From Myxococcales bacterium (GTDB lineage: Bacteria; Myxococcota_A; UBA9042): a stretch of 19,007 bases of DNA. Position 1 is the stretch's first letter. Every line of letters starts with the position of its first letter. This document shows positions 123 to 16,955 of this stretch, piece by piece. A program made the translations under genes and the position numbers. The notes beneath the pieces are model-generated. The model did not search any database. It was not told the origin of the DNA and worked only from the letters and a program-made list of their open reading frames with translations. The stretch is taken from NCBI GenBank assembly GCA_037441385.1, contig JBBISH010000119.1, positions 1-19,007 on the forward strand. The letters run 5' to 3'.

Positions 123-245
123 AGGGCGATTCGATGCGGTGGCAGAGTAGGCAACTGGTAAAGCAGGCGAACTGGTACGACCTGTGCGAGTAGCATACAG
201 TGGCGAGGCGGTTGCCGCAGGCGGCATTGCCGAGGCCAGATGTGA

Positions 246-377
246 CACGCACGCTACCGGATTCACCCGTGTACGGCTTCCATGACCCGGTCTGCAGCTG
301 GCAAGAGTCAGGCGGGATCCCTGGTTCAGGCCGGAACAATTGCCGAAGTTTTCTGGCCAGTTCCAGCGGATTCCGTG
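246..377 (+). mobile_element. Family A 132-bp MITE-like element, copy 1 (divergent)
   Basis: Aligns with the other copies. Ends CACG...CGTG. TGA direct repeats at 243-245 and 378-380. Confidence 0.85.
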
Positions 378-379
378 TG

Positions 380-3300
380 ATGTCGACTGCGGCCGCCGGC
401 CTTGGCTGTCGGTCGCGGTGGTCGGGTGGCACGGGGATCTTGGCGTCTTCGCTGCTGGTCGCCGTCGCCCTGGCGGTACTGGCCGTGGCGGCTGAAGTCT
501 GGGCTCAGCCCGGTCCCAGTCAGGCTCCGGTCGCTTTGCCCAAGGATTCCACGCTCATCGAGGCCTTGGCGCCGCTGTTGTCGGTATCGCCGGACGGTCA
601 GGCCGCGATCGCCCTGGGCAGTGACCACGGCTTGGAGATTCGCGACCGCGACTCCACCGTCTACCGGCCGTCGCCGCGGCAAAATGGCGTATCTTCAGAG
701 GAAGTCGCCTGGGCGCGGATCGTGGAGCGCGGCCGGCAACAGAGCAAAGTACTGGTGCGCGGCGCGTGCGACCCGCTGCAACCTGGCCTGGTGGTTTCGC
801 TGCGCCTGCGCGTGCCTGCCTGGGCGGCCGACGAGCCGCTGATGCGCGCCTTGGCGCTGGGTTTTGTGCCCCTTGGAGTGACCGACCGCCGCCCGCTGAC
901 CTCGCTGGCCACGCTGTTGGCGCAAAACGCCGCGGCGGCACAGGGCGCGGTTACTCGGCTGACCAGCGAGTCGCGATCGGTGGCCGACCAGGCGCGGGCC
1001 ATGAACAAGGCGGTGGTCCGCGGTCGATACCTGGGCCAGTCCTTGGGCCAGGCGATGGCCGCAACCGAAGACGCCGACACGCGCGAATGCCTGCGCTACG
1101 TGGTCGCCAATCCCGAGCGATACGCCAACTCGAGCTATGCTTGGGCCGAGATCTACGCGACCTGGCTGCTGTTTGCCGACGACGATCAAGCTGTTCGCCG
1201 CCACACCGACGCGGTTGCCGCGCTTGAGCAGCAGGCCGACGCCGCCAGTAGCAGCGAGCGTTTTGGCGAGGCCACGGCACTGTGGCAGCGCTTGCTCGCC
1301 CTGGAGCCCGAACAGCAACGGGCCAAGAAGGCACTTGCGGCCTTGGCCTGGCGCAGCAACTTGTTGGCGCAGCTGGCCGAAGCGCCTCGCGACCGCGATC
1401 TGCGGTGGAGCCTGAGTGTCGCCCTCATCGACCTGGGGGCCTACGCCGCCGCCCGGCAAGTGCTAGAGACCTTGGTGGCCGACGATGCCGAAGACACCGT
1501 GGCTGCGAACAAATTGGCCCAGCTGGCCTGGTGGCAGCGGCGGGTGGCCGAGGCTGAAGCTCGCTGGCGGGACCTGGCGCACCGCACCGGCAAGGCCACC
1601 TTCGCCAAGAGCGCCGACCTGATGCGCCAGTGGCTGCACACCACCGCCCACAATCAGGACTCGCCAAGCTGCCTGGCCCTGGCCAACGCCTTTGTCGACC
1701 ATCAAATGTGGAGTGACGCCAGCGCGTGGTATGGAGAGGCCCGACGGTTTTCGACGAGCGCTGCGGCCACCGCCCTGGCGTGTCAGGGCCAAGAGCGCGT
1801 GGATCGGGCGGTGCGGGCCACGGAGCGCGCCCAGCAGGGGCGCCAAGCCGTCGACGAGTTTGCGGTGGTGGCTGTGGAGGCGGCCTTTGACGATACAGTC
1901 AAGCTACTGGCGGATCGGCCGGCGGTGGCGGCAGAGCTGTTGCGGCCGGTTGCCGATGCCGCCCGCGACAAGCGGTTGTTGCACTTGGCCGAGCGCCTGG
2001 CGGAGCGCTTGGTGGCCATGGACCCCACCAATGTCGAGATGTGGAATACCCTGGCACTGACCCAAGGGAGGCTGCGCAAGCCCACGCAAGAGCTCAAGAC
2101 TCTGCTGCAGGCGCAGGAAATCGACGACTTTGGTGGCATGGCCGCCCTTGGTCAGTTTACTGCCTACATGCGCCTGGGCCAGCTGGCCAAGGCCCGCGAG
2201 GCGGCACGGCGCCTGATTCAGAAGGCGGGCGGCGATGCCATCGGCCACATCCTGGCCGCCAAGGTCGCTGTGGCCGAAGCCCGCTATGCCGAAGCCGCCC
2301 AGCACACCGCCAAGGCTTGGGCGCGGGTCTCGTTTGAGCCCGACGACAAGCACATTGCCCTGGCCGATCGTGCCGAGGTCGAAGCGGCGATCGACGCAGG
2401 TACGCAACTGCGCAGCTTGTCGCCTCGGCAACTGGCCACGCCGCAGGGCCGGCGCCTCACGCGCCAATTGGGGATCGCCTTGGCCGAGCTTGGGGCCTTT
2501 GATGCGGCCAGCAAAGTGCTGGAGCAACTGCCGTCCGGCTCTGCCGAACGCCGCGAGCTTGCCGGCGCCCTGGCCAGCGACGACACCACGCCGCCCGACA
2601 TGGCCTTGGCCTATTGCGAGCAAGCCCAAGACGGCAGCGCTGTGCGGCAGCGGCAGCTCCAGCGGATGCGGGCGGAAGCCGCGGCCTTGCGCCATCCCGA
2701 CGACTTGGGCCTGCAGTTGCGCTGGGCCCAGCTGCTGATCCTCGACGGGCAGTTCTTGCTGGCGCGCGGGGTGTGTGCCCAAGCGTTGGCCCGCGCCGAC
2801 CGCACGGGCGACCTTGCCGTTAACCTGAGCCAAGTAGCCAAGTTGGCCGACGACGGGCTGGCGGCAGATGCCCGCTTGGCCCAGTCTCGGGCGGCGAGCG
2901 TGGTCGACAACGACGAACAGGGCGAGTCCGAGGCGGTGGCGGCCTTGGCAGTGTTTCAGCGCCTGGGTGCTCCGGCTCGCGCAGGCGACGCTGCCCTTCG
3001 CGCGGCCTCGGCGGCGGCGGCGCACGGCGAGGAGCTGCGGGCCGTGGCGCTGGCCCAGCAGGCGGTGGCGATCGCCAAGAACGAGGGCGACCCTGCCGAC
3101 GTCCTCCGCGCCGAGGAGGTGCTGGCGCATATCCGAGCGCTGCTTGGCGCCCTCGACGCCTGGGCGCCGGCGATCGAGGCGCTTGAGCGCCGCTGCCTCG
3201 ACCGCGGCCGGGTGACCTGCCTGGCCGGAACGCGCCTGCGCCTGGCCCAAGGGGCCCGCCAGCAAGGGCGATTGGCTCAGGCCCTCGCCTACGCACGGCA

Positions 3301-5608
3301 GTCGCGCCGCAACGCCGAGCTCGGTGGCGAGCCGCACTTGTTCCGCAAGGCCTTGGACGAGGAGCTGAGCATCCTGATGGCGGCGGAGGACTTGCCCGAG
3401 GCCGTGACCGTCGCCACCCAGCTCTTCGAGATGGCCAGAGCTGGCGGCGAGGGGCACCAAGAGCGCGCCGCACTCACCCGGCTGGCGGCGGTCGCCTGGC
3501 GGCTCGGGGACGATCGCTTGGCTGCCGACCGGTTCGCCGCGGCCCTGGCCTCGGCCCACGACGCCGAGCCGGCCCAGGTGCCGTGGATCCGCCTTGAGCG
3601 CGCCCAATGGTGGCTCGACGGCCACGCGGGCGAGCAGGCCGTGCAGTGGGCGCAAAAGGCCGCCGACGAGATGGCCGAAGTTGCACAAGCGTATCGTGCG
3701 CGGAGCAGCGACACTTCGCGCATCGAGGCCGAAGCGCTGCAAGCGCGGGCCCTGCTGGCCGCCGGGCAGCCGTCCGAGGCGCGGCGTGTGGCGGCTCGGG
3801 TCGAAGCCGACGCGCTGGCCCGCTCGGCGTTTGAAGACGCACTCACCGCGGCCTGGGTGCGGGCCCGCAGCGAACCGGTCGCCGCCCAGGCCGTTGCCGC
3901 TGGCGAGCGGGCCGTCGCCTTGGCCAATCGGCTCGAATTGCCGGGCTGGCGTTCGCTGGCGCTGCACGCGCTGGGGCAAGCCCACCTGCGCGCTGGCGAT
4001 GCGGCCAAGGGTCGCAAGTGGCTGTTGCAGGCTGTGGATCAAGCCGCAGAACAAGCCGTGATGGCGGTTGGCGCGGCCAGTCCGGTGTTGCGGCGCGAGC
4101 GCGAACAGGTGTTTGCCGATGCGGTGCAAGCCCTGCTCGCAGCGGGTGCGCAGGATCAGGCCCTGCAAGTGCTGGCGGTGGCGCGAGCGGTGCAAGCCCG
4201 GAACAATCGCGCCCTTGCTGGTGTGCAGGCCGGCGACGCTGAGGCCCAAGCCGCCCTGCAAGCCTATGTTTCGGCTCGACAACAGCAGCACGCCGCGCGC
4301 GCCGCGGCCAGTCACTCGTCCGGGAAGGGCGCGGCCACGGCCGAGCAGTCGGCGTGGAAGGCGCGCGCCGAGGCCAAGACGCGGGAAACCCAGAGCCAGC
4401 TGCAGACCATTCGCGCCCACTACAAGCGCCTGTGGCCGCAGGTGGCGGTGGAGCCCGAGTCGTTGCCGGCGCTGCTCAAGAGATTGCCCGACAAGACCTT
4501 GATCCTCCAGTACTTTGCTTTGCCCGATCGCCTGGTGCTGTTTGTGGTCGGGCCCGGCGGTATCCAGACCCGCGAAGTGCCCGTGGCATGGCCCGAGGTC
4601 GAGCGCGCTGTCGAGGCCTGGCGGCGCTTGGCGGTCGACGACGGTCGGCGCCTGGCAGCAGCGAATGGTTCGCGCGGTGCGGAGGCCCTGGGCGACCTGC
4701 CTGCGGCGTCCACCGCGACGGTCGCGGCCGACCAGAGCCGCGAGCAGCAGCTTCAGACCGTGGGGTTGAAGCTCTATGGTTGGCTGCTGCAGCCGGTGCA
4801 AGCCGAAATCGCTGCGGCGAACACGGTGCTGGTGGTGCCGTTTTCGCTGCTCCACTACCTGCCCCTGCACGCCTTGCCGCACCGCACGCCAAGGGGCGAG
4901 ATCCGCTATGTGATCGAAGATGTGCGCATGGGCTACCTGTCCGCGGCCACGGCCACGGCGCTCGCCGACCGCCGCGCACGCACGCCTCGCAGCCTGCGCG
5001 TGTTGGGAATCGGCAATCCCGATGGCACCTTGCCCGGTGCCCACGCCGAGCTGCAGCAGGCGCGGCAGTTCATTGCCTCTGACAGCGTGCTGCTGTTTGG
5101 CAAAGAGGGGACGGTCGCCCAATTCACGTCGCTGGCCAAAGACTTCGACGTCTTGCACCTGGCCACCCACGGTGTGCTCCAAGCTGATCCGTCGCGCAGC
5201 TACCTGCGCATGGCCGACGGGCCGCTGACCCTGTCGGCGATTTCGGCCACCGATGGCCTGGCGCTGCGGCCCCGACTTGCGGTGCTGTCGGCCTGTTCGA
5301 CGCTGCTGCAGCGCGCGGCCGAGCCGGGGGTGGCCGTGGTCGGCGACGAAATTGCGTCGCTGGCCACCGCCTTTGCCGTGGCCGGAGTGCCCACCCTTGT
5401 AGCGACGCTGTGGGACGTGGACGACCAGGCGACGGCCGCGTTGATGGCGAGTTTCTATCGGCACTTGGCCGCTGGGGCCGATACGCTCGAAGCGCTGCGC
5501 CAGGCCCAGTTGGCCCTATTGGCGGCGGGGCGAAATGGCATGGGGCGGCCGGCCTTTGCTTCGCCAGCAGCCTGGGGAGCGGTAGAGCTGGTTGGCGATC
5601 CGCGTTGA
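380..5608 (+). CDS. Secreted TPR-repeat CHAT-domain (caspase-like) protease, ~1742 aa
   Basis: N-terminal hydrophobic signal (ILASSLLVAVALAVLAVAAEVWAQ), long Ala/Leu-rich TPR-like helical region, and a C-terminal CHAT domain (LVVPFSLLHYLPLHAL, LHLATHG His at 5168-5170, VLSAC Cys at 5294-5296, ATLWDVDD, SPAAWGA). Alternative start is GTG 242, in frame through element copy 1. Confidence 0.9.
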   Translation: MSTAAAGLGCRSRWSGGTGILASSLLVAVALAVLAVAAEVWAQPGPSQAPVALPKDSTLIEALAPLLSVSPDGQAAIALGSDHGLEIRDRDSTVYRPSPRQNGVSSEEVAWARIVERGRQQSKVLVRGACDPLQPGLVVSLRLRVPAWAADEPLMRALALGFVPLGVTDRRPLTSLATLLAQNAAAAQGAVTRLTSESRSVADQARAMNKAVVRGRYLGQSLGQAMAATEDADTRECLRYVVANPERYANSSYAWAEIYATWLLFADDDQAVRRHTDAVAALEQQADAASSSERFGEATALWQRLLALEPEQQRAKKALAALAWRSNLLAQLAEAPRDRDLRWSLSVALIDLGAYAAARQVLETLVADDAEDTVAANKLAQLAWWQRRVAEAEARWRDLAHRTGKATFAKSADLMRQWLHTTAHNQDSPSCLALANAFVDHQMWSDASAWYGEARRFSTSAAATALACQGQERVDRAVRATERAQQGRQAVDEFAVVAVEAAFDDTVKLLADRPAVAAELLRPVADAARDKRLLHLAERLAERLVAMDPTNVEMWNTLALTQGRLRKPTQELKTLLQAQEIDDFGGMAALGQFTAYMRLGQLAKAREAARRLIQKAGGDAIGHILAAKVAVAEARYAEAAQHTAKAWARVSFEPDDKHIALADRAEVEAAIDAGTQLRSLSPRQLATPQGRRLTRQLGIALAELGAFDAASKVLEQLPSGSAERRELAGALASDDTTPPDMALAYCEQAQDGSAVRQRQLQRMRAEAAALRHPDDLGLQLRWAQLLILDGQFLLARGVCAQALARADRTGDLAVNLSQVAKLADDGLAADARLAQSRAASVVDNDEQGESEAVAALAVFQRLGAPARAGDAALRAASAAAAHGEELRAVALAQQAVAIAKNEGDPADVLRAEEVLAHIRALLGALDAWAPAIEALERRCLDRGRVTCLAGTRLRLAQGARQQGRLAQALAYARQSRRNAELGGEPHLFRKALDEELSILMAAEDLPEAVTVATQLFEMARAGGEGHQERAALTRLAAVAWRLGDDRLAADRFAAALASAHDAEPAQVPWIRLERAQWWLDGHAGEQAVQWAQKAADEMAEVAQAYRARSSDTSRIEAEALQARALLAAGQPSEARRVAARVEADALARSAFEDALTAAWVRARSEPVAAQAVAAGERAVALANRLELPGWRSLALHALGQAHLRAGDAAKGRKWLLQAVDQAAEQAVMAVGAASPVLRREREQVFADAVQALLAAGAQDQALQVLAVARAVQARNNRALAGVQAGDAEAQAALQAYVSARQQQHAARAAASHSSGKGAATAEQSAWKARAEAKTRETQSQLQTIRAHYKRLWPQVAVEPESLPALLKRLPDKTLILQYFALPDRLVLFVVGPGGIQTREVPVAWPEVERAVEAWRRLAVDDGRRLAAANGSRGAEALGDLPAASTATVAADQSREQQLQTVGLKLYGWLLQPVQAEIAAANTVLVVPFSLLHYLPLHALPHRTPRGEIRYVIEDVRMGYLSAATATALADRRARTPRSLRVLGIGNPDGTLPGAHAELQQARQFIASDSVLLFGKEGTVAQFTSLAKDFDVLHLATHGVLQADPSRSYLRMADGPLTLSAISATDGLALRPRLAVLSACSTLLQRAAEPGVAVVGDEIASLATAFAVAGVPTLVATLWDVDDQATAALMASFYRHLAAGADTLEALRQAQLALLAAGRNGMGRPAFASPAAWGAVELVGDPR

Positions 5609-5934
5609 CGGACGGACCTGAAATGGGGACTAGCGCGCCAACCTGGCGCGGCCCCTTGTCAGGGCTGGTCGGCGTGGGCGTCGCCAGGCCGCCCAACCAC
5701 AGCGCCCGCTTGGGCTGGTCGGGCCGCCCAGCTTGTGCCGTGGCGAGTGCCCTGCGACGGGCTCGCCCGGAAGGCCGCGGCGGGGCGGGCTCGCGCGCAT
5801 GCGCCACTGGGCCTTGCCCGCGGTTGGCATCGGCCAAGGTCGGTGCCGCACTTGACTCGCGATCGTTTCTTGCACGGGTGGCGGAGCTGTGCCAAGGGCG
5901 GCGCCTTGTCTGGAAATTCAGCAGAAATCCACGG

Positions 5935-5963
5935 TTGACGTGGGTCTGCCGGCGGCGTAGGCT
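5935..5963 (+). promoter_or_regulatory. Putative sigma70 promoter
   Basis: TTGACG-N17-TAGGCT with an A-rich stretch upstream and GGAGG at 5992-5996 downstream. Confidence 0.55.
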
Positions 5964-6001
5964 CCTCGCCATAGGCCGAAAGGTCTGGTTTGGAGGGGTG
6001 A

Positions 6002-6133
6002 TGCGGTTTCCGTCCAAATCGGCTCGAAAACTTCGGCAATTCTTCGGGCCCGAGCCGGGGTCCCCGCCTGATTCTCGCCGGTTGCAGACCGGGTCAGAGA
6101 AACCGTACAGGCGTGAATCAGACGGGGTTCGTA
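6002..6133 (-). mobile_element. Family A 132-bp element, copy 2
   Basis: Reverse-orientation full copy. TGA direct repeats at 5999-6001 and 6134-6136. Confidence 0.9.
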
Positions 6134-6194
6134 TGATGTGGGCGCTGCGCTGGTCAGGCCGGGCGACCGTGGGCGGTGGCGCCTTGCATCGGTC

Positions 6195-7325
6195 ATGATC
6201 CGCTGCAGAACCGCTGCTTTGCGCGTAGTGGCGCTGGTCGCGCTCGCAGTCGGCGCCAGCGGGTGCTTGGAGGCGACGGCCCGCGCCACCTTTGTCCACG
6301 ACTACGATTGCCCCGAAGAGGAGCTGCAGCTGCGCGAGCGGCCCGATCTGGACCCGCGCGCCTTTCGCCCACCACTTGGGCCGTGTCCCACGCCGGAGCG
6401 AGCGGACCTCTGTGCTCGCCGCGCAACGGACTGGCACGAGGCCAACCGCGTCGCACCCGACCCGGCCTACCTGCCCAGCGCCACGCTTTACGAAGTCTGG
6501 GGTTGCCGCCGTAAGGCCCTGCTCAGTTGCTTTTCGCCGCGCAAGGGCCAGCGGGGCCCCGCCGGCTGCCGCACCATCGCCTTGGACGCCCCGCCGCCCG
6601 CCATGCCGCCCGCGCGCGACGGTCCAGGCAGCGCCGATCCGTACTACCGGCCCGTCGATCCGGTGGCCGAGCGCCGGGCGAGCGCCTTCTACTTCGGCGC
6701 GCGCAGCGGAGTGTTGCCGGTCTCGGCGGGCGCGGTCAGCCAACCGGTAACCTTGGGCAGTGGCGCAACCACCCAATACTTCGCGGCTGCGCACGAGGTG
6801 ACGATCCCCTTTGGCATCGAGGCCAGCTACCAGTTCCGGCCCTCCGAGCGCTTGGCCATCGAGACGGGGTTCTCAGCCTCGGGTGGCTATGCCGCCAGTG
6901 GTTTTCCGGTGTTCGCCTTCGACTTGCCCGTCCGGCTGCTGCTGATGTTCGACCACCTGGGCGTGTACGCCGGCGGTTCGTTTCTGGTGGGGAGCTACAC
7001 GGTCGACGCCATCACACTGGCCAAGGGCGACCAACTAGGCGTATTCACTGCCCGCCAGGGCGACACGGTGCAGGCCACCACGCAATGGATGACCGTGGGC
7101 GTTGGCGCCGGAGTCCGCTACGAGTTCCAGCATTTGTATCTGCGGGTTGGACTTGCCCACTACCTGCGCAAGCATCTGGATGGATGGGAGACTTCGTATC
7201 GGCAGGCCTCGGACGGCGAGCGCCGCGGCATCAGCGAGCAGACCTACGGCAACGCGACGCCCAACGTGGACGCGGGTGGGCTGATGTTCGACCTGGCGCT
7301 GGGCATTCCGTTCAAGCTCTTCTAG
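6195..7325 (+). CDS. Lipoprotein with an N-terminal Cys-containing domain and a C-terminal outer-membrane beta-barrel-like domain
   Basis: Lipobox VGASG-C after a hydrophobic stretch; CPEEEL...YEVWGC domain; Pro-rich linker; amphipathic strands (GVGAGVRYEF, LYLRVGL); ends in aromatic F (GLMFDLALGIPFKLF). Alternative start GTG 6138. Confidence 0.75.
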   Translation: MIRCRTAALRVVALVALAVGASGCLEATARATFVHDYDCPEEELQLRERPDLDPRAFRPPLGPCPTPERADLCARRATDWHEANRVAPDPAYLPSATLYEVWGCRRKALLSCFSPRKGQRGPAGCRTIALDAPPPAMPPARDGPGSADPYYRPVDPVAERRASAFYFGARSGVLPVSAGAVSQPVTLGSGATTQYFAAAHEVTIPFGIEASYQFRPSERLAIETGFSASGGYAASGFPVFAFDLPVRLLLMFDHLGVYAGGSFLVGSYTVDAITLAKGDQLGVFTARQGDTVQATTQWMTVGVGAGVRYEFQHLYLRVGLAHYLRKHLDGWETSYRQASDGERRGISEQTYGNATPNVDAGGLMFDLALGIPFKLF

Positions 7326-7399
7326 GGCGGACGCTCCGGCGGCGGCGGATCCGCGCGCTTGCCCCAGGGTTGCTTGGGTCGCGAATCGGAGGCGAAGTG

Positions 7400-8755
7400 A
7401 TGCCACGACAAGCCCTGCAGTGCCGCTCTACCCTGCGCCGGGCGGGGCCCAAGCGCCCCAACTCCGCGACTTGGCGGAGACTCTGGGCCTTGGCGACGCT
7501 GGCGTTGCTCCTGGTCACGTCCTCAGCCCACGCGGAAGCGATCGCGTTGCTGCGCAAGGCGGGCAGCGCCGAACTTGCCGACGCCCGCTTTGCCCGCGAA
7601 TCCGGCCTGCAGATCGAGGCGGTCACCGTCGAGTTCCAGTGCGAGTCCACAGGCTTCGACCTTGCCACCACCCGCTCCGGCCACCGCTGCCGCAAGGAGC
7701 AAGTCGCGGTCTTGGTCAACCGCAGCGAGGCGGCCGTCGACCTGGTGGGCCGCGCGTGCGGTCCGTGCGTGGGGCGCTGGTGTACCCACTTCCAGGGCAG
7801 CCCAGTTGCCGAGATCGACCTGGATGACCGCGATTCAGAGGACTTGGCTGCCCAAATGCGCCGACTCACCGGCGAGCCGGGCGGTGGCGGCGTGGCCCTG
7901 TACGCTTGCGACGGCATCGCTGTGAAACTGCCACCCGGCGGACGCCTGGAAATCCGTTCGCGCAGCGGCTACTTCGACGCCAACTTCGCAGAGCCGGCCT
8001 TTGACGACAGCTGCCGTTTGAGCCGCAGTGGTGCCTCGGGCGCAGTGTCCAGTGTGCCCGGCTTCGCCGTGCGCCATCCGCTGCTCCATACCAGCGTGGC
8101 CTGCGCGACCATCGCCGATTTCGCCGTGGATGCAAGGTGGTTGCAGCTCTATCGCGGCGATGCCGTGGTGGCCGGCCGGATGCGGCACGCCAACGGTTTG
8201 GCGGCGTCGGCCGTGGGCAGCCGGCCCGCGGCGCTGCAGACCAGCGACGGCGAGGCGACCTTGCTGGTGGGCGTTGGACCGACGTGCAACGCCAATTCCC
8301 ACTGCGATCCGGCGGGGCAGGCCGCCATCCGCTTGACCCGACCGGGCACCTGGCTGCGCAACGGCGGGCCAACGGTGGCGTTTGGCTCGACCCGCCACGA
8401 TGGCAATGCCGACCGATTGCGCATCGGCTACGACGTAGGTTTTGGCCAAAGCGTCGCCATGGGTTCGCTGCACCTGGACATGAGCGTCACGGGTCCGCGC
8501 CGCCTGGTGCTGACGCCCAGCGTGTCGCTGCTGTTGCCCCTGGCCATCGCCCCGCCGCTGTTCCTCTTGCCCAGCCTGGCGCTGGGCGTGGGGGCGCCCG
8601 TGCAGGTGGTCCCCGAGCCGCGCGTCGGCGTTCGGTTGCTGGCTGACGCGACCCTGCTTTCCGTGGGTTTCGTGGTGGCGGGCGACTATTTCGGGGCCGC
8701 GGCGCAGCAGCCCGGCGAGTGGCGCTACTCGCTGCTGTTTACGGCGGGGTTGTAG
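7400..8755 (+). CDS. Exported protein with a C-terminal beta-barrel-like region, 451 aa
   Basis: GGAGG at 7388-7392; signal peptide LWALATLALLLVTSSAHA-EA; C-terminal amphipathic strands (RLRIGYDVG, WRYSLLFTAGL). The upstream part of the 6527 ORF overlaps the previous gene. Confidence 0.75.
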   Translation: MPRQALQCRSTLRRAGPKRPNSATWRRLWALATLALLLVTSSAHAEAIALLRKAGSAELADARFARESGLQIEAVTVEFQCESTGFDLATTRSGHRCRKEQVAVLVNRSEAAVDLVGRACGPCVGRWCTHFQGSPVAEIDLDDRDSEDLAAQMRRLTGEPGGGGVALYACDGIAVKLPPGGRLEIRSRSGYFDANFAEPAFDDSCRLSRSGASGAVSSVPGFAVRHPLLHTSVACATIADFAVDARWLQLYRGDAVVAGRMRHANGLAASAVGSRPAALQTSDGEATLLVGVGPTCNANSHCDPAGQAAIRLTRPGTWLRNGGPTVAFGSTRHDGNADRLRIGYDVGFGQSVAMGSLHLDMSVTGPRRLVLTPSVSLLLPLAIAPPLFLLPSLALGVGAPVQVVPEPRVGVRLLADATLLSVGFVVAGDYFGAAAQQPGEWRYSLLFTAGL

Positions 8756-8769
8756 CTCCCACTCCGTAA

Positions 8770-8834
8770 TACGGTTTCCGTCCAAATCGGCTCGAAAACT
8801 TCGGCAATTCTTCGGGCCCGAACCGGGGTTCGTC
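8770..8834 (-). mobile_element. Family A element, copy 3 (65 bp, internally deleted)
   Basis: Both termini are present (TACGGTTTCCG... and ...GGGGTTCGTC). TAA direct repeats at 8767-8769 and 8835-8837. It lacks the 67 bp between the two CGGGGT motifs seen in copy 2. Confidence 0.85.
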
Positions 8835-9401
8835 TAAGAGCGGGCATGGTCCGCGGACCTGCCTTGTGCCCAACGGGCGATAGCTACTTGACCTGCACCG
8901 TCAGCACTGGGCCCGAACTCGGCGCGGCGCGGCGCTTGCCATCCCGCAAGGCCGGTGCCCCACTTCGCTCTTGGCCCTGGCTCGCACGGGGCGGCGCTGT
9001 GCACGCCCGACGCCCACGCTAGTCGCGCACGACCTCGACGATTGTTCCCGCACTTTGCCCTTGAATGTCAGGCCGATCAGGCTCCATCGCCAGGGCCGGC
9101 GGCGCAGTGGACCGCCCTGGCGTGGCGGCCCGCACCACGAACGGCCCTTGGACCGCGTCGCGTGCAGCCACGCCGCCACACCTGCCAGCGTCATGGCCGC
9201 CGCCGGCTCGCCGCCCCCGTCCAGAACAGCGCGATTGGCATGCAGAGTTCGGCCCAGTCGCGCCATCCGCTCGTCGCTTGAGCTGGCCAGTGCCTCCAGC
9301 GCTGCGGCGTTCACGGCGGTCGCAGGGGGCGGCGCGCCCCCTTTGGCACTCTCTACCTGGACGCAAAGTCCTACGTTTGTCGCAAGATGGCGAGCGTTGC
9401 G

Positions 9402-9429
9402 TTGACCAGCACCGTTGCCGTGGCAAAAT
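9402..9429 (+). promoter_or_regulatory. Possible sigma70 promoter of the DoxX gene
   Basis: TTGACC-N16-CAAAAT with an extended -10 TG, ~30 nt upstream of ATG 9462. Confidence 0.35.
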
Positions 9430-9461
9430 CTGCGGAGCAACCCAGTGGGAGTCAACCGGCG

Positions 9462-9851
9462 ATGTGGACCGACAAGACCTTCAATCCGTGGCTGGGCCGC
9501 GTCTTCACCGGCCTGCCCGGCCTGGCGCTCGTGGCGAGTGGGGCGATGAAGCTGACCGGCAACCCCGAAATAGTCAAGATGCTCACCGAGAAGTTTGGCT
9601 TTAGGGCTGACCACTTGCCGGTGATCGCGGTCATCGAATTGGCGTGCGCGACCCTGTATTTGATCCCGCAGACCGCGGCCTTGGGCGCCGTGCTGCTCAC
9701 CGGCTACTTGGGCGGCGCTGTCGTGACCCATCTGCGCGTAGGCGACCCGGTGGTGGCGCCGGTCCTGTTGGGGGTGCTGCTGTGGCTGGGCCTGTGGTTC
9801 CGCGATAAACGCGTGCGAGGGCTGTTGCCGGTGCGCGGGCCCCAGGCGTAG
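9462..9851 (+). CDS. DoxX-like family membrane protein
   Basis: SGAMKL...IELACATLYLIPQTAALGAVLLTGYLGGAVVTHLRVGD is the typical DoxX_2 pattern with 4 TM segments. GGGAG at 9447-9451; alternative ATG 9387. Confidence 0.9.
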   Translation: MWTDKTFNPWLGRVFTGLPGLALVASGAMKLTGNPEIVKMLTEKFGFRADHLPVIAVIELACATLYLIPQTAALGAVLLTGYLGGAVVTHLRVGDPVVAPVLLGVLLWLGLWFRDKRVRGLLPVRGPQA

Positions 9852-9954
9852 CGCGGCCGTCTTGCCGATTGGCCACCTTGGCCCACGGCAAATGTGTCCG
9901 GACGGCGGCCTATTGGGGCGCCGCCCGATTGCGCCGCGCTCGCAACGGCCCAAA

Positions 9955-10002
9955 GCGGAGTGGGATCTTGGCCGGCGGAGTGGGATCCTGGCCGGCGGCG
10001 TG
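9955..10002 (+). repeat. 20-bp tandem repeat, ~2.4 units
   Basis: GCGGAGTGGGATC(T/C)TGGCCG at 9955-9974 and 9975-9994, partial third unit. Confidence 0.8.
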
Positions 10003-10259
10003 CTGTGGGGCGACCAATCAAGAATCGTTCAAGTTGCGGGGCGCTTGGACCTGCGACGTCGGGTTCGGAACCTTCAAGGCCCACATGCAGCCTGCGTTGA
10101 TCGGCCGGTGTCCCACGTCCAAGGTCATGCAAAGCTGACGACCTGGACGCTGCCTGGGTTCTTGCTGTCCCCTTGCGCCTCGCGGACCTGCCGTCGCCAT
10201 GCCGCAGGGCAGGCACTCAAGCCCCGTGGAGAAGGGGCGCTTGGGACTCCGGCGCGGGT

Positions 10260-10424
10260 CTAGAACACCAATCACGAATCTCCGAGGTTCAGAGCAACGA
10301 GAGCACTCGCTGACGAAAACTCGTGGATGCTCAGTGGGTCGCAAGCGGGCGCCCCAGAGCCCTGCACTGCCGCGACCCGCCGCGACGTTTGCCCCCAGGA
10401 CTGGGTTTCTGATCGGTGCTCTAG
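10260..10424. mobile_element. Family B CTAG-bounded MITE-like element, copy 1
   Basis: Terminal inverted repeats CTAGAACACCAATC...GATCGGTGCTCTAG; closely similar to 12605-12754. Confidence 0.8.
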
Positions 10425-10556
10425 CCACGGGCCGCGCCGTACCGCCGACCACAGGGGCCTGCGCGGCGAGCGGGATGAACCCAGCGGGCCGCAGGTGCGG
10501 CATCGGCCAGTTGTGGCCCGCAGCCACCGGCGCTACCCTGCTCCCCGGAGGTGGCC

Positions 10557-11738
10557 ATGCTCGAACTCCGCATTCCATCGGTCCTTGGCTGGTCTTCCGT
10601 GATCTTGGGAGCGGCGGCGTGCGTTGCGACGTCCACGGGCAGTAGCGGCGGCGGGGGCGGCGGGGCCGCTGTGGTCCCGGTAAACGGCGGCGCGGTGGCC
10701 AGCGCCTGCACGCAAGAGGACCAAATCGGCTGCGCCCCCGGCTCGCTGATCCGCGTCCGCTGCAAAGGCGGCGCCTGGACCCAGGAAGAGGTCTGCAGCA
10801 CCGGCAAGGCCTGCACCGAAACCTTGGATCCGCAAGGTAAAGTCACGGCCACCGTCTGCGCCATGCCCGTCACCAGCCGCGAATCCAAAGCGATCCTGTG
10901 TGCGCGGGCTAGCGCGTGCGTCAAGCCGATGACCTTCTCGGAGTGCATGAACCCGCCAACCTCGACCCTCATCAGCAAACAGATCGCCGTGTCCGGCTTG
11001 ACCGGCCCCGAAGACCTGCTCGCCACGCAAGTCGACGCTCGCTCGGCCTGCCTCCTGGCCGCGACGGATTGCAAGGCGGTGCAGGCGTGCTTTGCCGCGG
11101 GTGTTACAGCCTGCGAAAGCAACACGGCGGACTCGTGCGTGGGTTCCGTCGCGCGCATTTGCACGGGCGGCGCCACCTACTCGGTGGATTGCGCGAGCGT
11201 GGGCCTCCCCTGCACCTCGGTCAAAGCCGGCGGTGTGGGCATCTTGACCTGCGGCAGCCTGCCCACCTGTACGCAGCTCGGTACCGCGACGTGCAACGGC
11301 TCGGTTGCGCAAGGTTGCATCGGTTTGGACAAGACCACCGGGGTGCAGATCAAGGTCGATTGCGGTGTATTGGGCGGCACTTGCACGGCTTCGGGTCAGC
11401 TCAGCCTGGACCCCAACTCGGTGTGCCAGGTGGGCCCGGGCGGCGCCTGCGACGAAGCGACCTTTGTCCCCACCTGCCAAGGCAACAGTCTGAAAGCGTG
11501 TGTCAAAGGCAAGTTGCAGCAACTCGACTGCAGCTTGGTGGCCGGCACTTGCGCCCTCTCGACTGACGCCGACGGCAAGCCGGTCGCCGAATGCACGGCC
11601 ACGCCCAACTGCCCAAGCTCGCTGCCCAATGACTGCGCCGGGAACGCGGTGCAGTTCTGCGACGGCAGCCTGGGCGCGCGGTCTTTTGATTGCACCAAGG
11701 CCGGACTGAAGTGCAGCAGCGGCAAGTGTCAGTTTTGA
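10557..11738 (+). CDS. Cys-rich repeat lipoprotein, 393 aa
   Basis: GGAGG at 10547-10551, lipobox LGAAA-C, Gly-rich linker, repeated C-x-G-x(4-5)-C...DC-x4-C modules. Confidence 0.85.
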   Translation: MLELRIPSVLGWSSVILGAAACVATSTGSSGGGGGGAAVVPVNGGAVASACTQEDQIGCAPGSLIRVRCKGGAWTQEEVCSTGKACTETLDPQGKVTATVCAMPVTSRESKAILCARASACVKPMTFSECMNPPTSTLISKQIAVSGLTGPEDLLATQVDARSACLLAATDCKAVQACFAAGVTACESNTADSCVGSVARICTGGATYSVDCASVGLPCTSVKAGGVGILTCGSLPTCTQLGTATCNGSVAQGCIGLDKTTGVQIKVDCGVLGGTCTASGQLSLDPNSVCQVGPGGACDEATFVPTCQGNSLKACVKGKLQQLDCSLVAGTCALSTDADGKPVAECTATPNCPSSLPNDCAGNAVQFCDGSLGARSFDCTKAGLKCSSGKCQF

Positions 11739-11843
11739 ACGAGCCAAAGCCCGTTTCTCATTGAGCAGTTGCGTGTCTTTGCCGCGCCGTGCCCCCCTGC
11801 CGAACGTCGGCGCCAAGGATCGCGGCTGGGCAGGGATACGACC

Positions 11844-11872
11844 TTCGCATTTGGCCCGCCTGACGCTATGCT
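11844..11872 (+). promoter_or_regulatory. Possible sigma70 promoter of the two-component operon
   Basis: TTCGCA-N17-TATGCT, 34 nt upstream of ATG 11907. Confidence 0.35.
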
Positions 11873-11906
11873 GCCGCTGCACCCGCGCGCGGGACCGGAC
11901 CGCCCC

Positions 11907-12608
11907 ATGGCCACGTTGCTGCTGGTCGATGATGATCGCAACCTGTTGGAATTGCTTAGCATGGCCTGCGAGGACGCTGGGCACCGCATCCTCACGGCCG
12001 GCGATGGCCGCAGCGGGCTCGAAGTCGTCAAGCGCGAGGCGGTCGATCTGGTCATCGCCGACGTCAACATGCCGATCGTCGACGGGTTTACTTTGGTTCG
12101 CCGCCTGCGCGAGGCCGGCGCCGCGGTCCCGGTGATCCTGCTGACCGCCCGCGACCACGAGGTGGACGAAGCGCTGGGCCTGGAACTCGGTGCCGACGAC
12201 TATGTGGCCAAACCCTACAATACACGGCTGCTTTTGGCGCGGGTAGCGGCGCTGCTCCGGCGCGACCAGCTGCGCGGGCGCAACGACGGCACGCCGCGGT
12301 TGCAGCACGGCCACCTCACCTGGGACACCGAGCGCCTGGAAGTGCGGTGGCGCGACCAGCTGCTGCCGATGACCGTGAGTGAATTCCGGCTGGTCGAGGC
12401 GCTGGTGCGCCGACCGGGCGTCGTGCTGAGTCGCGAAAAGCTGATGGATCTGGTGCGGGGCGACGACAGCGTAGTCGGCGAGCGCATCATCGACACGTGG
12501 GTCCGGCGTCTGCGGCGCAAATTCGAGGGTGCGGACGCCAGCTTTGATCGCATCGACACCGTGGTGGGCGCCGGCTACCGCTGGCGCAGTGACGGCGAAA
12601 CACGCTAG
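11907..12608 (+). CDS. OmpR/PhoB-family response regulator (ChvI/CreB-like), 233 aa
   Basis: Receiver domain LLVDDD...IADVNMP...LLTAR...GADDYVAKP; winged-helix domain TVSEFRLVEALVRRPGVVLSREKL...RRLRRKF...IDTVVGAGYRW. Confidence 0.95.
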   Translation: MATLLLVDDDRNLLELLSMACEDAGHRILTAGDGRSGLEVVKREAVDLVIADVNMPIVDGFTLVRRLREAGAAVPVILLTARDHEVDEALGLELGADDYVAKPYNTRLLLARVAALLRRDQLRGRNDGTPRLQHGHLTWDTERLEVRWRDQLLPMTVSEFRLVEALVRRPGVVLSREKLMDLVRGDDSVVGERIIDTWVRRLRRKFEGADASFDRIDTVVGAGYRWRSDGETR

Positions 12609-12754
12609 AACACCCATCGCAAATCTCCGAGGTCCAGAGCAACGCAACCACTCGCTGACGAAGACTCGTTGATGCTCAGTGGGTCGCAAGCCGGCGCTCG
12701 CGCGACCCGCCGCGACGTTTGCCCGCAGATCCGGGGTTCTGATCGGTGCTCCAG
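12605..12754. mobile_element. Family B MITE-like element, copy 2
   Basis: CTAGAACACCCATC...GATCGGTGCTCCAG, 15 bp shorter than copy 1. Its left CTAG contains the regulator's TAG stop. Confidence 0.8.
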
Positions 12755-12851
12755 GCGCGAGTCGGACTATCCCGACACGCTCCTAGTCGCACCCAAGCCG
12801 GCGAAGGTACTGGACCTGGACTTGCCCGTTGGCGGGCCGCGGTGAGGTAGC

Positions 12852-13946
12852 ATGGGACGGAGCCCACCCCCAGAGACCCACCTGCCTGCGCCCCGTGCCC
12901 GGCCGCTGTGGCCCCAGCGGCGCCGTGGGTGGTTGCGTTCGCTGCGGTTGCGGGCCCTGCTGGTGACCGTGGCGGTGGCGCTGTGGCCGCTGGCGGTGTG
13001 GCAAGAGCTGGGCTGGCGAGCCTGGCTGGCGCAGGTGCTGCCGGTCGCGCTGGGGCTGGGTTGGTGGTTGGGTTGGCGCATGGTGCGACCCATCGAACTG
13101 CTCAACGATCAAGCTCAGCGCCGCAGTGGGCCGGCGGCCGACGACTTTGACCTGGACCCGCACCGCAGCGACGAGTTTGGCGAGTTGGCGGCTTCGCTCA
13201 ATGGCTTGCTGCATCGCCTGGACCAGCGGTCGCAAGCCAACGCGCGCTTTACGGCCGACGTGGCCCACGAACTGAAGAATCAGCTCGCGGCGGTACGCGG
13301 GGTGGCCGAACGTCTGCGCGACGGGCCGCCCAGCGCCGAACGGGCGGCGCGCCTGGCCGAGATCCTGTTGGGAAGCTCGCGCCGCCTGAATGAATTGGTT
13401 AGTGATTTATTGGAGTTGACACGTGCCGAGGCCGGTATGCCCGGCGAAACCCGGCAACGGGTCGACCTGGCGAGCTTGTGCACCGCCTTGGTGGCGCAAC
13501 TGGCCGCGGACCCGCGCTGGAGCGAGCGGCTGACGTTGACGGCGAGCGCGCCGCAGTCGCTCTACGCCGACGGGGTGGCCGTGCGCCTGGAGGCGGCGAT
13601 TCGCAATCTGATTGAAAACGCTTGCCATTTTGCCGTACGCCATGTCGCAGTCCACGTCGAGTCGAGCGGAGATCGGGTGCGCATCACGGTCGCCGACGAT
13701 GGACCGGGTGTTCCGCCCGAGCAAGCAAACCAAGTGTTCGAGCGCTTCTACACCACCCGGCCGGGCCAGGGCACTGGGCTGGGGCTGCCGCTGGTGCGGG
13801 CGATTGCCGAGGGTCATGGTGGAGTTGCGATGCTGTTGCCGGTTCGCGAGGGGGCGACGTTTGCCCTGGAGCTCCCGCTGGCGACCGAGCTCGAAACGGG
13901 CGCCCCGGCTGCCCCGGCTCGTATGTCGGATACCAACCTCGTCTGA
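12852..13946 (+). CDS. Sensor histidine kinase (2 TM, HAMP, HisKA, HATPase), ChvG/CreC-like
   Basis: HAMP (RPIELL...DEFGELAASLN), H-box ADVAHELKNQL, N-box NLIENA, G1 DDGPG, F-box FERFY, G2 GTGLGL. Confidence 0.93.
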   Translation: MGRSPPPETHLPAPRARPLWPQRRRGWLRSLRLRALLVTVAVALWPLAVWQELGWRAWLAQVLPVALGLGWWLGWRMVRPIELLNDQAQRRSGPAADDFDLDPHRSDEFGELAASLNGLLHRLDQRSQANARFTADVAHELKNQLAAVRGVAERLRDGPPSAERAARLAEILLGSSRRLNELVSDLLELTRAEAGMPGETRQRVDLASLCTALVAQLAADPRWSERLTLTASAPQSLYADGVAVRLEAAIRNLIENACHFAVRHVAVHVESSGDRVRITVADDGPGVPPEQANQVFERFYTTRPGQGTGLGLPLVRAIAEGHGGVAMLLPVREGATFALELPLATELETGAPAAPARMSDTNLV

Positions 13947-14062
13947 TTCACGCCTGTACGGTTTCTCTGACCCGGTCTGCAACCGGCGAGAATCAGGCGG
14001 GTACTCCGGTTCGGGCCCGAAGAATTGCCGGAGTTTTCGAGCTGAATTAGGCGGATTCCGTA
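13931..14062 (+). mobile_element. Family A 132-bp element, copy 4
   Basis: Full copy with GGA direct repeats at 13928-13930 and 14063-14065; overlaps the kinase 3' end. Confidence 0.9.
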
Positions 14063-14104
14063 GGAGCAGCGGCAGCCGGGTCGCGCTGGCGCGCGGCTGC
14101 TGGG

Positions 14105-15250
14105 TCAGTCGCGCTGTGCCTTGGGGCAGGTCCACTGCGGCTCGGGGTAGCTGGCGCCGCTGCCGAAGTCGCTGATCAGGTCGACACGGCCGCTGATGCT
14201 GCGGTCGCGGCGGCGCAGTTCGTGGGCCATCGATCCCGCCAGTTCGCCTTGCCACAGATAGGCCAAGCTGCCGCGGTGCGAGTCCATGTCCCAATGGGCG
14301 GTCGAGCCGCGCAGCGCCTGGATATCAAAACCAAAGCTGCTCGCCACCAAGGTCGCCAGCGGCGTGGCCGGGCCGCGGATGTCCATCTGCAGGTGGGCGG
14401 CGCCGTAGTCGCGCTCCACGCTGCCCTCGGCCGTCATCACCAAGTCGGTCAGGTTGCCAAAAGGGCCGAATACGCCGGGCTTGGCCGTGCCCATCGCCAC
14501 CTCGGCAAAGTCCCACAGCGACGCGTCGAACGCGATCGGGTTGGGCACGGTGCCGTCGGGCCCCGCCAAGATGTGGCCCAGCGGGCCAAGCGCTTCATAA
14601 GAGAACTCATAGTGATTCTTGGCCTCCATGCTGCCCCGCATTTCCTTGAAGCTCAGGCTGGTGGTCACCTTGGCGCCCACCAAGTAGGCGTCGAGCTCGA
14701 AGGGATTGGCCAGGATCAGCGCGCCGACTTGGCCTTTGCCGGCGGGTTGCAGCAGCGGGTCGTGGAACGACACCCAGAAGTCCATGCTGGACAGGGGGCC
14801 GGGCACGCTGACGTGCCAACGGCCGCCGTCGTGGCTCAGCGAAGAGGCGTCGATCATCAGGCCCAGGCCCTTGGCCAGTTCTTTGAGCTGGGCGACGGTC
14901 GCGTCCTCAAAGCCAAACGCCGCTTGGTTGCTGAGGAACACGGCCACCAGAAGGCTCTGCGCCAGGCGGGTCTGGGTCTGGCCGCAGGCCACCAGCTCGT
15001 GCAGGCAGCTGCCCGCCGCGTCGCCCAGCTCCGCCAACTCGGCCTCGTCACTCTGCGGCAGACCGCACACCATCGAGCCAGCGAAGGTGGAATTGGCGTC
15101 GTTGTTGGGGGGCTGGCTCCAGGTCTGGGTCGGATACGTCGGCCCGCCCGACGCCTTGACGGGCTCTGTGTCCACGGCGCAGGCAGACAGCGTAACGCCG
15201 CAAAGGATTGCCACAATTCCCCGCTCGATGGTGCCAGCAAAACGCAACAT
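14105..15250 (-). CDS. Lipoprotein of unknown function, 381 aa
   Basis: GGAGG shortly upstream of the ATG (GCGGAGGTACACATG on the minus strand), lipobox TLSA-C, globular-looking composition. Confidence 0.85.
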   Translation of the reverse strand: MLRFAGTIERGIVAILCGVTLSACAVDTEPVKASGGPTYPTQTWSQPPNNDANSTFAGSMVCGLPQSDEAELAELGDAAGSCLHELVACGQTQTRLAQSLLVAVFLSNQAAFGFEDATVAQLKELAKGLGLMIDASSLSHDGGRWHVSVPGPLSSMDFWVSFHDPLLQPAGKGQVGALILANPFELDAYLVGAKVTTSLSFKEMRGSMEAKNHYEFSYEALGPLGHILAGPDGTVPNPIAFDASLWDFAEVAMGTAKPGVFGPFGNLTDLVMTAEGSVERDYGAAHLQMDIRGPATPLATLVASSFGFDIQALRGSTAHWDMDSHRGSLAYLWQGELAGSMAHELRRRDRSISGRVDLISDFGSGASYPEPQWTCPKAQRD

Positions 15251-15340
15251 GTGTACCTCCGCGGCGGTCGGTCCCCAACTGCGGGGCGTCGTGCCGTGGA
15301 GTCACCTTGCCCGTCCCCTTTGAACGCCCAAGCGCGGCCA

Positions 15341-15362
15341 TGTGAATCGTGTGTGAATCGTG
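15341..15362 (-). promoter_or_regulatory. 11-bp tandem direct repeat containing a perfect cre-tag (TTCAC-N6-TTCAC)
   Basis: TGTGAATCGTG x2 on the + strand, equal to TTCACacacgaTTCAC (15357-15342) on the - strand, ~90 nt upstream of ATG 15250. Confidence 0.65.
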
Positions 15363-15468
15363 GCGGACGCGGAGTAGTCGGCCGCGCCGTGCAGTTGCCG
15401 CTGGGTGTTGCCCCGGCGTAGCCTATGGTCTGTGGAACGCAGCGAGTGCGGGAGCTTGGACCACATGA

Positions 15469-15600
15469 TACGCACCCCACCTGATTCGCGCCTGTACGAC
15501 TTTTCTGATCCGTTCTGCAACTGGCGAGAATCAGGCGGGGACCCCGGTTCGGGCCCGAAGAACTGCCCGAGTTTTCGATCCGATTCGGACGGAATTGGCA
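15469..15600 (+). mobile_element. Family A 132-bp element, copy 5
   Basis: Full copy with TGA direct repeats at 15466-15468 and 15601-15603. Confidence 0.9.
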
Positions 15601-16499
15601 TGAGCGCAAGAAGGCCGCCGATGGCGCGACGCCGCTGGGTAGGGATTGGGGTGCTGGCCGCCAGTTGCTGGCTTGCTCTGGCTGCGCCCGTCCGGGCAGG
15701 CGAGCCCGGCGAGGTGAGTTGGCTGACGCGCCCTGCGCGGCTCAGCGTGCAGCACAGCGGGCCGATGGGGCAGCATCAGCTGTGGGCCTTGGACGATGGG
15801 CGCGTAGTCACCCTGGAATGGATCAGCGGTTCGATGGAACTAGGGCCTGCCGACCAGGGGCCGACCGCCAGCCTGTGCCGCGTGCCCGCCGCCCAAGTGG
15901 CCAAGGCCGTCGCTGCACTGCGGCGCGGTAGTCTGTGCAAAACTCCTAGCAATTCAGGTAATTCAGTGGGCGGTGCCATCGCCATCGCGGCCGATCTGGG
16001 CGACGGCCAGCACTGCGTGGTCCGCCGGCGATCGCGCACCTGGAGCGCCGCCGACAGCAAGCTGTTGAGCCAGGTGGAAAACCTTGTCCACAGCGGGACT
16101 TGCGTGGCATTGCCGGACGAGGTGAGCGCGGCGGCCCTGGGGGCCATGCCCAAACTGGACCCGCAGGTCGAATGGCTCCAGGGGGGCACCCTGACGGAGT
16201 CTTTCGGCTTTGACCCGACCGGCGAACTGCTGGCCTGGCAATTCTTGCAGCCGCTGCCGCAGCGCAGCGTCCAGGCCGCCTTGGCCCAGCAGGCCGCCGA
16301 GCTGGCAAATCGCCTGCGGAGCGTACCCTGTCAACCGAACGTGCAAGATGGCCGCGAGGGCGAGGTTCAAGTGCGCGTACGTATGGGCAAAGTCGGCCTT
16401 GGCCCCTGGAACGCGGCCACCTGGCAGCGGTCGCCTTGCTTGCAGCCCGTGTGGCGGTGGCTCCATGCGCTGCGGGCGCCGGCCCAGGGTGACAAGTAG
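15600..16499 (+). CDS. Secreted protein of unknown function, ~299 aa
   Basis: Signal peptide RRRWVGIGVLAASCWLALAAPVRA-GE. Alternative starts: ATG 15465 (in frame through the element) and ATG 15621. Confidence 0.7.
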   Translation: MSARRPPMARRRWVGIGVLAASCWLALAAPVRAGEPGEVSWLTRPARLSVQHSGPMGQHQLWALDDGRVVTLEWISGSMELGPADQGPTASLCRVPAAQVAKAVAALRRGSLCKTPSNSGNSVGGAIAIAADLGDGQHCVVRRRSRTWSAADSKLLSQVENLVHSGTCVALPDEVSAAALGAMPKLDPQVEWLQGGTLTESFGFDPTGELLAWQFLQPLPQRSVQAALAQQAAELANRLRSVPCQPNVQDGREGEVQVRVRMGKVGLGPWNAATWQRSPCLQPVWRWLHALRAPAQGDK

Positions 16500-16619
16500 C
16501 TTCGGTCGGTGTTTTGCGGCGGCAGCGATGCCTTTGCCCGGCGGTGCTCGAAGTGCGCCGGCCCGGCCACGCACCTGTGTGCTGTGCACCTTCCGCTACC
16601 GCGCCAGCTCGCGACTTTG

Positions 16620-16628
16620 TGCTAGACT
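16620..16628 (+). promoter_or_regulatory. Extended -10 promoter of the retron
   Basis: TG-C-TAGACT, 6 nt upstream of the first base of the a1/a2 repeat (16635). Confidence 0.55.
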
Positions 16629-16634
16629 GGCTGC

Positions 16635-16797
16635 GGGTTGCGGCGCGCGCCAAGCAGACCTCAGGCAGCTTGCCTCGGTCTCTCTGGGGCTACCCCAGGG
16701 CAATTCATCGGCTTATCGGGCCATCGCAGGACCCGCTGCGTGGCCTCTCACGCGACCGGTCCTGCACGACGAGCGAGGTTGGCGCGTGCCGCAATCC
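16635..16797 (+). ncRNA. Retron msr-msd ncRNA
   Basis: 19-bp a1/a2 inverted repeat 16635-16653 / 16779-16797 (17 Watson-Crick + 2 G-U pairs); G16654 in an AGC context directly after the 5' arm; msr stem-loops 16657-16680 and 16682-16700; msd hairpin with GCAGGACC/GGTCCTGC and GCGTG/CACGC stems; upstream of a retron RT. Confidence 0.88.
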
Positions 16798-16803
16798 TTC
16801 CCA

Positions 16804-16935
16804 AGCCAGATCCACTCGAATCCGCTCGAAGAAGTCGGCGACTCTTGGGTCCTGAACCGGGTTTCCGGCCTGATTCTTGCCAGTTGCAGTGTGAGTCCAA
16901 CAGGCGATGCACGGGCGAATCCGCTGGGGAGCGCA
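16804..16935 (-). mobile_element. Family A 132-bp element, copy 6 (divergent)
   Basis: Degenerate reverse copy of the same length; CCA direct repeats at 16801-16803 and 16936-16938. Confidence 0.8.
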
Positions 16936-16955
16936 CCAACCAGCCGGGGTGCGGC

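Follow-up and report, generated by a model that had tools for sequence, protein, structure and literature searches.

We have good confidence that a 132-bp repeat on a 19,007-nucleotide contig of a Myxococcales bacterium (assembly GCA_037441385.1, contig JBBISH010000119.1) is a MITE (miniature inverted-repeat transposable element) that duplicates a T-N-A triplet on insertion and is likely moved in trans by a branch of the IS630 family (Tc1/mariner-type insertion sequences, IS) making the same three-base duplication. The assembly under study (G000; G, C, and L numbers denote genomes, contigs, and loci) comprises 6.63 Mb at 67% GC and is 91% complete; the entire contig, C119, was analyzed and is called the window here. 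A genome of the same genus (G007) is represented by an 81% complete assembly.

The element is short, high in copy number, and carries no transposase gene. A first profile made from the five long copies of the window gave 415 matches on 149 contigs of G000, and a rebuilt profile gave 436 non-overlapping loci (284 full-length, 49 of a short 65-bp type, 52 with the left part only, 44 with the right part only, and 7 others). These numbers are lower bounds, as 43 of the 442 contig ends form one cluster of MITE and linked repeats, and the same clustering means that multi-copy IS elements may be unassembled in G000. Genome-wide, 436 loci in 6.63 Mb correspond to about 1 MITE per 15 kb, so the figure of about 1 per 3 kb in a preliminary description of this DNA is local to the window, which is about fivefold denser than the average. 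The family is also present in G007 and gave no match in 59 other relatives searched; neither Rfam nor plasmid sequences contain a match to the element. The MITE family is real and abundant, an ordinary kind of selfish DNA, and probably undescribed.

Identical three-base flanks enclose 126–127 of 273 near-full copies, the triplets being TGA (51), TCA (43), TTA (12), TAA (10), and others (11). Identity at other lengths is rare in the same 273 copies (1 base in 10, 2 bases in 4, and 4–10 bases in none), a shifted register gives 2–32 identical flanks, and 2,000 shuffles in which left and right flanks were re-paired at random average 39 identical flanks and never exceed 57, against 126 observed. 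Copies with TNA on both sides have the same middle base in 115 of 127 cases, and flank identity drops with copy age, from 31/40 in the best-scoring class to 4/33 in the worst. The preliminary description had proposed, from six copies, a non-autonomous mobile element with a TNA-like target, each copy with its own 3-bp target-site duplication; the proposal is supported genome-wide, with matching flanks far beyond chance.

We screened 136 copies with identical flanks for paralogous empty sites, 14 of which lie within evaluable host repeats. At 13 of the 14, uninterrupted paralogues hold exactly 3 bases between the flanks, where a model of TA duplication needs 8, and at the fourteenth (the copy at 6002 in the window, with a single diverged paralogue) the gap is 4 nt. 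Comparison of G007 copies with G000 gave 33 loci, 14 of them colinear, and 5 of these overlap by exactly 3 nt. The orthologous retron in G007 lacks the window's copy at 16804–16935 and has a single CCA and a spacer shorter by 135 nt. A single triplet at empty sites, one of the checks that had been suggested, is thus seen between paralogues, between the two genomes, and at the retron. From these single triplets we therefore infer that the target is T-N-A and that the terminal TA of the element belongs to the element, not to target DNA.

Metagenomes searched with the end pattern gave at least 115 loci, including several more MITE families with these ends. Among the matches listed are four long elements (1,148–1,186 bp) with both ends, flanked by TGA/TGA, TTA/TTA, TTA/TTA, and TGA/TAA, and all four encode an IS630-family transposase, three with a frameshift at an A-run; an IS630 transposase gene lies in 6 of the 115 loci listed, out of a total of at least 115. 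The model NF033545 scores above its cut-off for 4 of 5 pieces tested, with an N-terminal piece matching below it, and the proteins have the helix-turn-helix (HTH) and DDE parts of an IS630-type transposase, their D and E residues being aligned.

Because the end pattern had been built from MITE-like ends, we repeated the test from the protein side, finding plasmid elements by tblastn and examining their ends afterwards. These elements likewise combine ends that start with TA and TNA flanks: TGA/TGA in Methylocystis (L300), TAA/TAA in Stanieria, TGA/TGA in ISAva6, and TNA flanks in Thermus. On a complete plasmid of Sinorhizobium all 7 full copies have identical flanks, N being T, A, or C; Thermus has identical flanks in 6 of 9 copies and TNA in 16 of 18 flanks, and Stanieria has TNA in 9/9 visible flanks. 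ISAva6 interrupts mobV, and a single TGA is found at this site in 3/3 intact orthologues. The proposed partner therefore does not show a TA target duplication, since its empty sites contain a single TNA instead of a TA and its flanks covary in N, while the TA-type controls, IS630 copies from G106 (five) and G127, behave classically, with unrelated bases outside the TA. Three IS630 copies on Thermus plasmid W03 (L350, L354, and L356) have TNA on both sides but differ in the middle base from one side to the other, as recombination between copies would produce.

With the MITE-end profile, the median score is 8.8 bits for TNA-type IS630 ends (n = 24) and −16 bits for TA-type ones (n = 12), compared with a 99th percentile of 5.0 bits for random TA-starting 20-mers; ends reached through the protein only score 17.3 (Methylocystis), 19.7 (G021), 9.0 (G023), and 10.8 (Stanieria). 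Three members of the same bacterial family (G021, G013, and G023) hold remnants of the IS630 branch, two of them with matching ends. In a tree of 34 DDE segments (7 of 41 were left out as duplicates, and long branches were flagged), G021 and G013 fall within a 21-row clade with support of 100/100 that holds most TNA-type elements, and in the alignment D and E are spaced by 31 in the TNA-type rows (by 32 in L212) and by 30 or 37 in the TA-type ones.

A three-base T-N-A or T-W-A duplication is also characteristic of the IS1031 and ISL2 groups of the IS5 family and of PIF/Harbinger elements, to which the preliminary description had pointed. We regard a mover of IS5-family (IS1031/ISL2-like), PIF/Harbinger-like, or ISAzo13-type origin as improbable. 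The three-base target itself fits all of these groups, and the same bacterial family does hold IS5-type (L033 and L036) and ISAzo13-type (L024) elements with TAA/TTA flanks, but the ends of these relatives begin with GAG or GGG (resolved at 3 of 23 loci), unlike the TAC...GTA of the MITE. Neither G000 nor G007 has a match to PF13340, PF07592, or PF13359, and the long elements with matching ends encode IS630 transposases rather than those of IS5, ISAzo13, or Harbinger, which leaves the earlier pointer unsupported.

Long elements that share the termini of the MITE and encode a transposase, which it had been suggested to look for, are found as IS630 elements in other genomes and were not found in the incomplete assemblies of G000 and G007; in G000, a profile scan for ends outside the known copies gave 42 matches and no long paired element, and pairing 5'-only with 3'-only matches gave only nested repeats. 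Two PF01609 genes in G000/G007, which we take from their motifs to be IS1182-like and IS1634-like, lack matching ends, and an IS4/IS50-like remnant beside an end in G023 (L073) was judged coincidental. Besides G000, genomes with a match to a generalized end pattern numbered 5 of 28 within the family and 1 of 372 outside it in a phylum sample; among the matches listed (at least 10) in the scan of genome contigs, 9 were due to chance and one (L016) was a true copy, and viral sequences gave 4 matches, none with paired ends. With a relaxed pattern, G023 yielded small elements of ~310 and ~200 bp that have the same ends, TNA flanks, and other interiors. Three sequencing runs gave no informative empty-site joint among the matches listed to the window and only 3 short pieces of L158, neither of which is evidence either way. 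Related TAC...GTA elements with TNA flanks and internal hairpins (GTCATTCCCGCG) resembling repetitive extragenic palindromes (REP) were seen in G023 (L117 and L120), G011 (L266 and L274), and a metagenome (L256).

Several observations weigh against a MITE duplicating T-N-A and moved by IS630. PF13358, tblastn, and protein searches revealed no IS630 transposase in G000 or G007, both incomplete assemblies, and the IS630 copies of the same bacterial family are remnants only. Flanks are not identical in 147 of 273 full copies, which may reflect decay, boundary error, recombination, or assembly joins. Six of the 13 paralogous sites with 3 nt represent one site in one host repeat and are perhaps not independent, and among the colinear sites of G007 and G000, 1 of 14 overlaps by 2 nt and 8 have other spacer lengths, 3 of these 8 also holding an element in G000. 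As to the partner, one end of each of L158, L198, L212, and L217 was picked by a MITE-like pattern, making their scores partly circular, and several TNA-type ends (ISAva6 and Thermus) score under the 99th percentile of the null. Of 4 complete Stanieria copies, only 2 are identically flanked, and the TNA-type elements do not form one strongly supported clade in the tree (25 rows with 84/79, and L319 outside).

Because no IS630 gene was found in the G000 assembly, the IS630 identity of the mobilizer is one that we infer from ends and target; its gene may be unassembled, lost, or supplied transiently. A transposase dimer would bind both ends and excise the element, which would then enter a palindromic TNA across a stagger of 3 nt, host repair making the duplicate.

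The ends of the element read TACG(A/C)ACCCC... and ...GGA(A)YYGGTA or ...CCGTA and are imperfect inverted repeats over ~19 bp. Terminal repeats of this kind are seen in the better-conserved copies, as are the previously described stem (CCTGATTC...GAATCAGG) and palindrome (TTCGGGCCCGAA). The long stem is formed by positions ~54–70, which repeat the left end in inverted orientation. The description of the element as structured holds for the presence of hairpin and palindrome and less so for their folding, as single copies fold only modestly better than shuffles (z +1.5 to −2.8 for 6 strands) and compensation within the main stem is rare: double-sided compensatory changes number 0–5 per pair, against 4–24 broken, in 204 distinct copies. 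Because compensatory changes are so rare, we read the main stem as an internal copy of the end and not as a selected, covarying RNA structure.

The same counts bear on the idea that the repeats are REP/REPIN-like and depend on a Y1 (RAYT/TIRYT) tyrosine transposase, or are structured RNAs selected by the host, to which we give very little credence. Matches to Y1 transposases exist (6 in G000 and 10 in G007), and the stem arm at 54–70 is the most conserved segment of the element (8% departure, against 10–17% elsewhere); yet none of these 16 PF01797 loci is flanked by the element (best match E 0.52), and the rarity of compensatory changes, the lack of an Rfam match, and the differing insertion sites of G000 and G007 all speak against it.

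Returning to the element as a MITE, its forms and copies differ in age. The 65-bp form corresponds to a long form from which the 67 nt separating two ACCCC direct repeats are missing, and one 65-bp copy outside the window is 65/65 identical to a long subfamily; the short form likely arises by deletion across the ACCCC repeats at the base of the hairpin. A partner at ≥98% identity exists for 61 of 212 full 132-bp copies and the lowest tenth falls below 75% to the majority sequence, and there were therefore recent and old waves. Element and duplication together make 135 nt; of 109 copies, 105 keep one frame open on one strand and 103 keep one open on the other. Degenerate elements of ~78 bp that are bounded on either side by a left-type end occur in G000 (C7:83839, C205:2577, C101:21878, and C113:5741), and the 132-bp form may be a fusion of such a ~78-bp unit with a 65-bp unit. 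We also observed a 65-bp copy behind the same TGA in G000 (C41:37940–38004) and in G007 (L100), each copy resembling the subfamily of its own genome, a pattern that suggests gene conversion or repeated insertion.

Coordinates, lengths, orientations, and flanking triplets of the six copies first reported in the window were all reproduced (five of 132 bp and one of 65 bp). On the forward strand, the copy at 246–377 (132 bp) is old, with 74% identity to the majority sequence, and is flanked by TGA/TGA at 243–245 and 378–380; that at 13931–14062 (132 bp) is flanked by GGA/GGA; and that at 15469–15600 (132 bp) is young, its nearest other copy being 98.5% identical, with TGA/TGA flanks and the TGA of an ATGA as its target. 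On the reverse strand lie a young 132-bp copy at 6002–6133 (nearest other copy 97.7%; flanks TGA/TGA as read on the forward strand), the 65-bp form at 8770–8834 (flanks TAA/TAA; 64/65 identical to a long subfamily), and, at 16804–16935, the most diverged 132-bp copy (70%; flanks CCA/CCA), between a retron-like noncoding RNA (ncRNA) and its reverse transcriptase.

Three of these copies lie at predicted gene edges. The copy at 13931–14062 provides the final codons and the TGA stop (13944–13946) of a histidine-kinase open reading frame at 12852–13946; in the copy at 15469–15600, the terminal A and the duplicated TG rebuild an in-frame ATG at 15600; and next to the copy at 246–377, the A of the right triplet opens an ATG (380) in frame with a CHAT/TPR gene, ahead of a signal-like peptide. 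The starts at 380 and 15600 are predictions from sequence, and no sigma-70 promoter or terminator was found in 15400–17000. Genome-wide, in-frame stops carry 19 of 120 copies, compared with 74 of 4,000 random TNA sites and a crude non-coding baseline of 8.5%, the tests being different ones, and a start codon is formed by 11 of 120 copies, compared with 4.8% at random TNA sites. Targeting of stop or start codons is not established by these figures; the excess over the crude 8.5% baseline for stops is modest at most and may reflect survival of harmless insertions. The surviving copies lie mostly outside genes and at gene edges, likely as insertions there do little harm.

The retron-like ncRNA of msr-msd type (16627–16808, forward strand) has a long closing stem of a1/a2 type and a fold z of −6.2, and the retron-type reverse transcriptase (16956–18293, forward strand) has YADD and VTG motifs and scores below the cut-offs of NCBIfam retron models; both are host context, not parts of the element. 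No obvious effector gene adjoins the pair here (16627–18293) or in G007 (C89, L363), and among 37 genomes of the family it was found only in G000 and G007 (E 1e-40). The first feature of the window is a group II intron's 3' end (52–122, RF00029), followed at 123–168 by part of a ~290-bp repeat. All five intron 3' ends found in G000 are followed by the same position of this repeat, which has ends of the CCTGCCTTACCGG type, and two intron 5' ends match the same site (the contigs concerned are C113, C145, C154, C178, C187, and C199); the intron appears to use the repeat as its target.

These neighbors raise the thought that the repeats are retroposed RNAs, SINE-like (short interspersed nuclear element) or amplified msDNA (multicopy single-stranded DNA), spread by the reverse transcriptase of a retron or a group II intron, since one copy stands between retron ncRNA and enzyme, an intron end opens the window, and the element can fold. 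Such an origin is extremely unlikely, as the retron ncRNA is a separate sequence upstream, both ends of the element are inverted repeats common to DDE elements, and matches to the 3' part only are mostly contig ends, nested insertions, or 65-bp forms whose left end is normal, with no ladder of 5' truncations. The retron is a bystander, because its orthologue in G007 has no MITE copy. A second repeat family lies in the window at 10260–10434, 12605–12764, and 7578–7616 and is also multi-copy in G007, and a single TGA within what is apparently this second family is the site of six 132-bp MITE copies, either a hot spot or a composite that has spread.

A MITE duplicating T-N-A and moved by IS630 leads to a wider proposition, which we see as about evenly balanced between true and false. 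A widespread IS630/Tc1-mariner branch with D-31-E spacing, occurring in cyanobacteria, Thermus, rhizobia, methanotrophs, and the lineage under study, would break the TA rule by cutting T-N-A with a three-base stagger, the TA being its own terminus and the difference being hidden by annotation as TA; its MITEs would land on stops and ATGA starts without gene damage, terminal A and duplicated TG rebuilding the start, which would explain the hundreds of copies. IS630/Tc1/mariner elements are taught as TA-duplicating, and here named members from complete genomes, with their MITEs, duplicate T-N-A. If confirmed, the TA reading misplaces the element boundaries of this branch by two bases per end, many orphan TNA MITEs now ascribed to IS5 gain a candidate mover, and the branch would offer a good system in which to ask how a mariner-type transposase determines the target stagger. 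For G000, "mobilizer unknown or IS5" is replaced by a testable candidate.

Our literature search, with ISfinder and the main IS reviews outside its range, found no TNA-duplicating IS630, and the available portions of PMC13343696, PMC10969869, and bioRxiv 2024.01.18.576219 mention no TNA-type IS630 and no Myxococcota, while the supplementary MITE census of the preprint might include the family. ISY100 and IS630 duplicate TA, which lies outside the element, and ISY100 moves by cut-and-paste chemistry, according to the accessible text of PMC2170065. They resemble the proposed partner in their HTH and DDE parts and imperfect terminal repeats, the partner being often split by an A-run frameshift, and, as far as that text goes, differ from it in duplicating TA, whereas the partner duplicates T-N-A and keeps the terminal TA inside the element. 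For ISHsp2, PMC3606827 describes TTAA repeats and notes that they depart from TA. ISTth6, an IS630 element of Thermus that may or may not be L302, is listed with a 2-bp repeat in a table of PMC6352166. RUP (repeat unit of pneumococcus) is a repeat of 107 bp that inserts at TA, has stops in all six frames, and was tied to IS630-Spn1 by similarity of ends (PMC2229807, excerpted). Within what that excerpt covers, RUP and the MITE studied here are both small, high-copy, mostly intergenic, and linked to IS630 through end similarity alone, and they differ in that RUP has 107 bp, a TA target, and no open frame, and the MITE has 132 bp, a GC-rich sequence, a TNA target, and one open frame per strand. 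Plasmid-borne IS630 elements from Thermus, Methylocystis, Stanieria, and Sinorhizobium and ISAva6 of Trichormus variabilis share one transposase branch and have TNA flanks like the MITE, from which they differ in being autonomous and 1.1–1.2 kb long. The ends of ISAva6 and Thermus are not close to those of the MITE, and the right end of the Methylocystis element has its last 10 bases in common with one right-end variant of the MITE.

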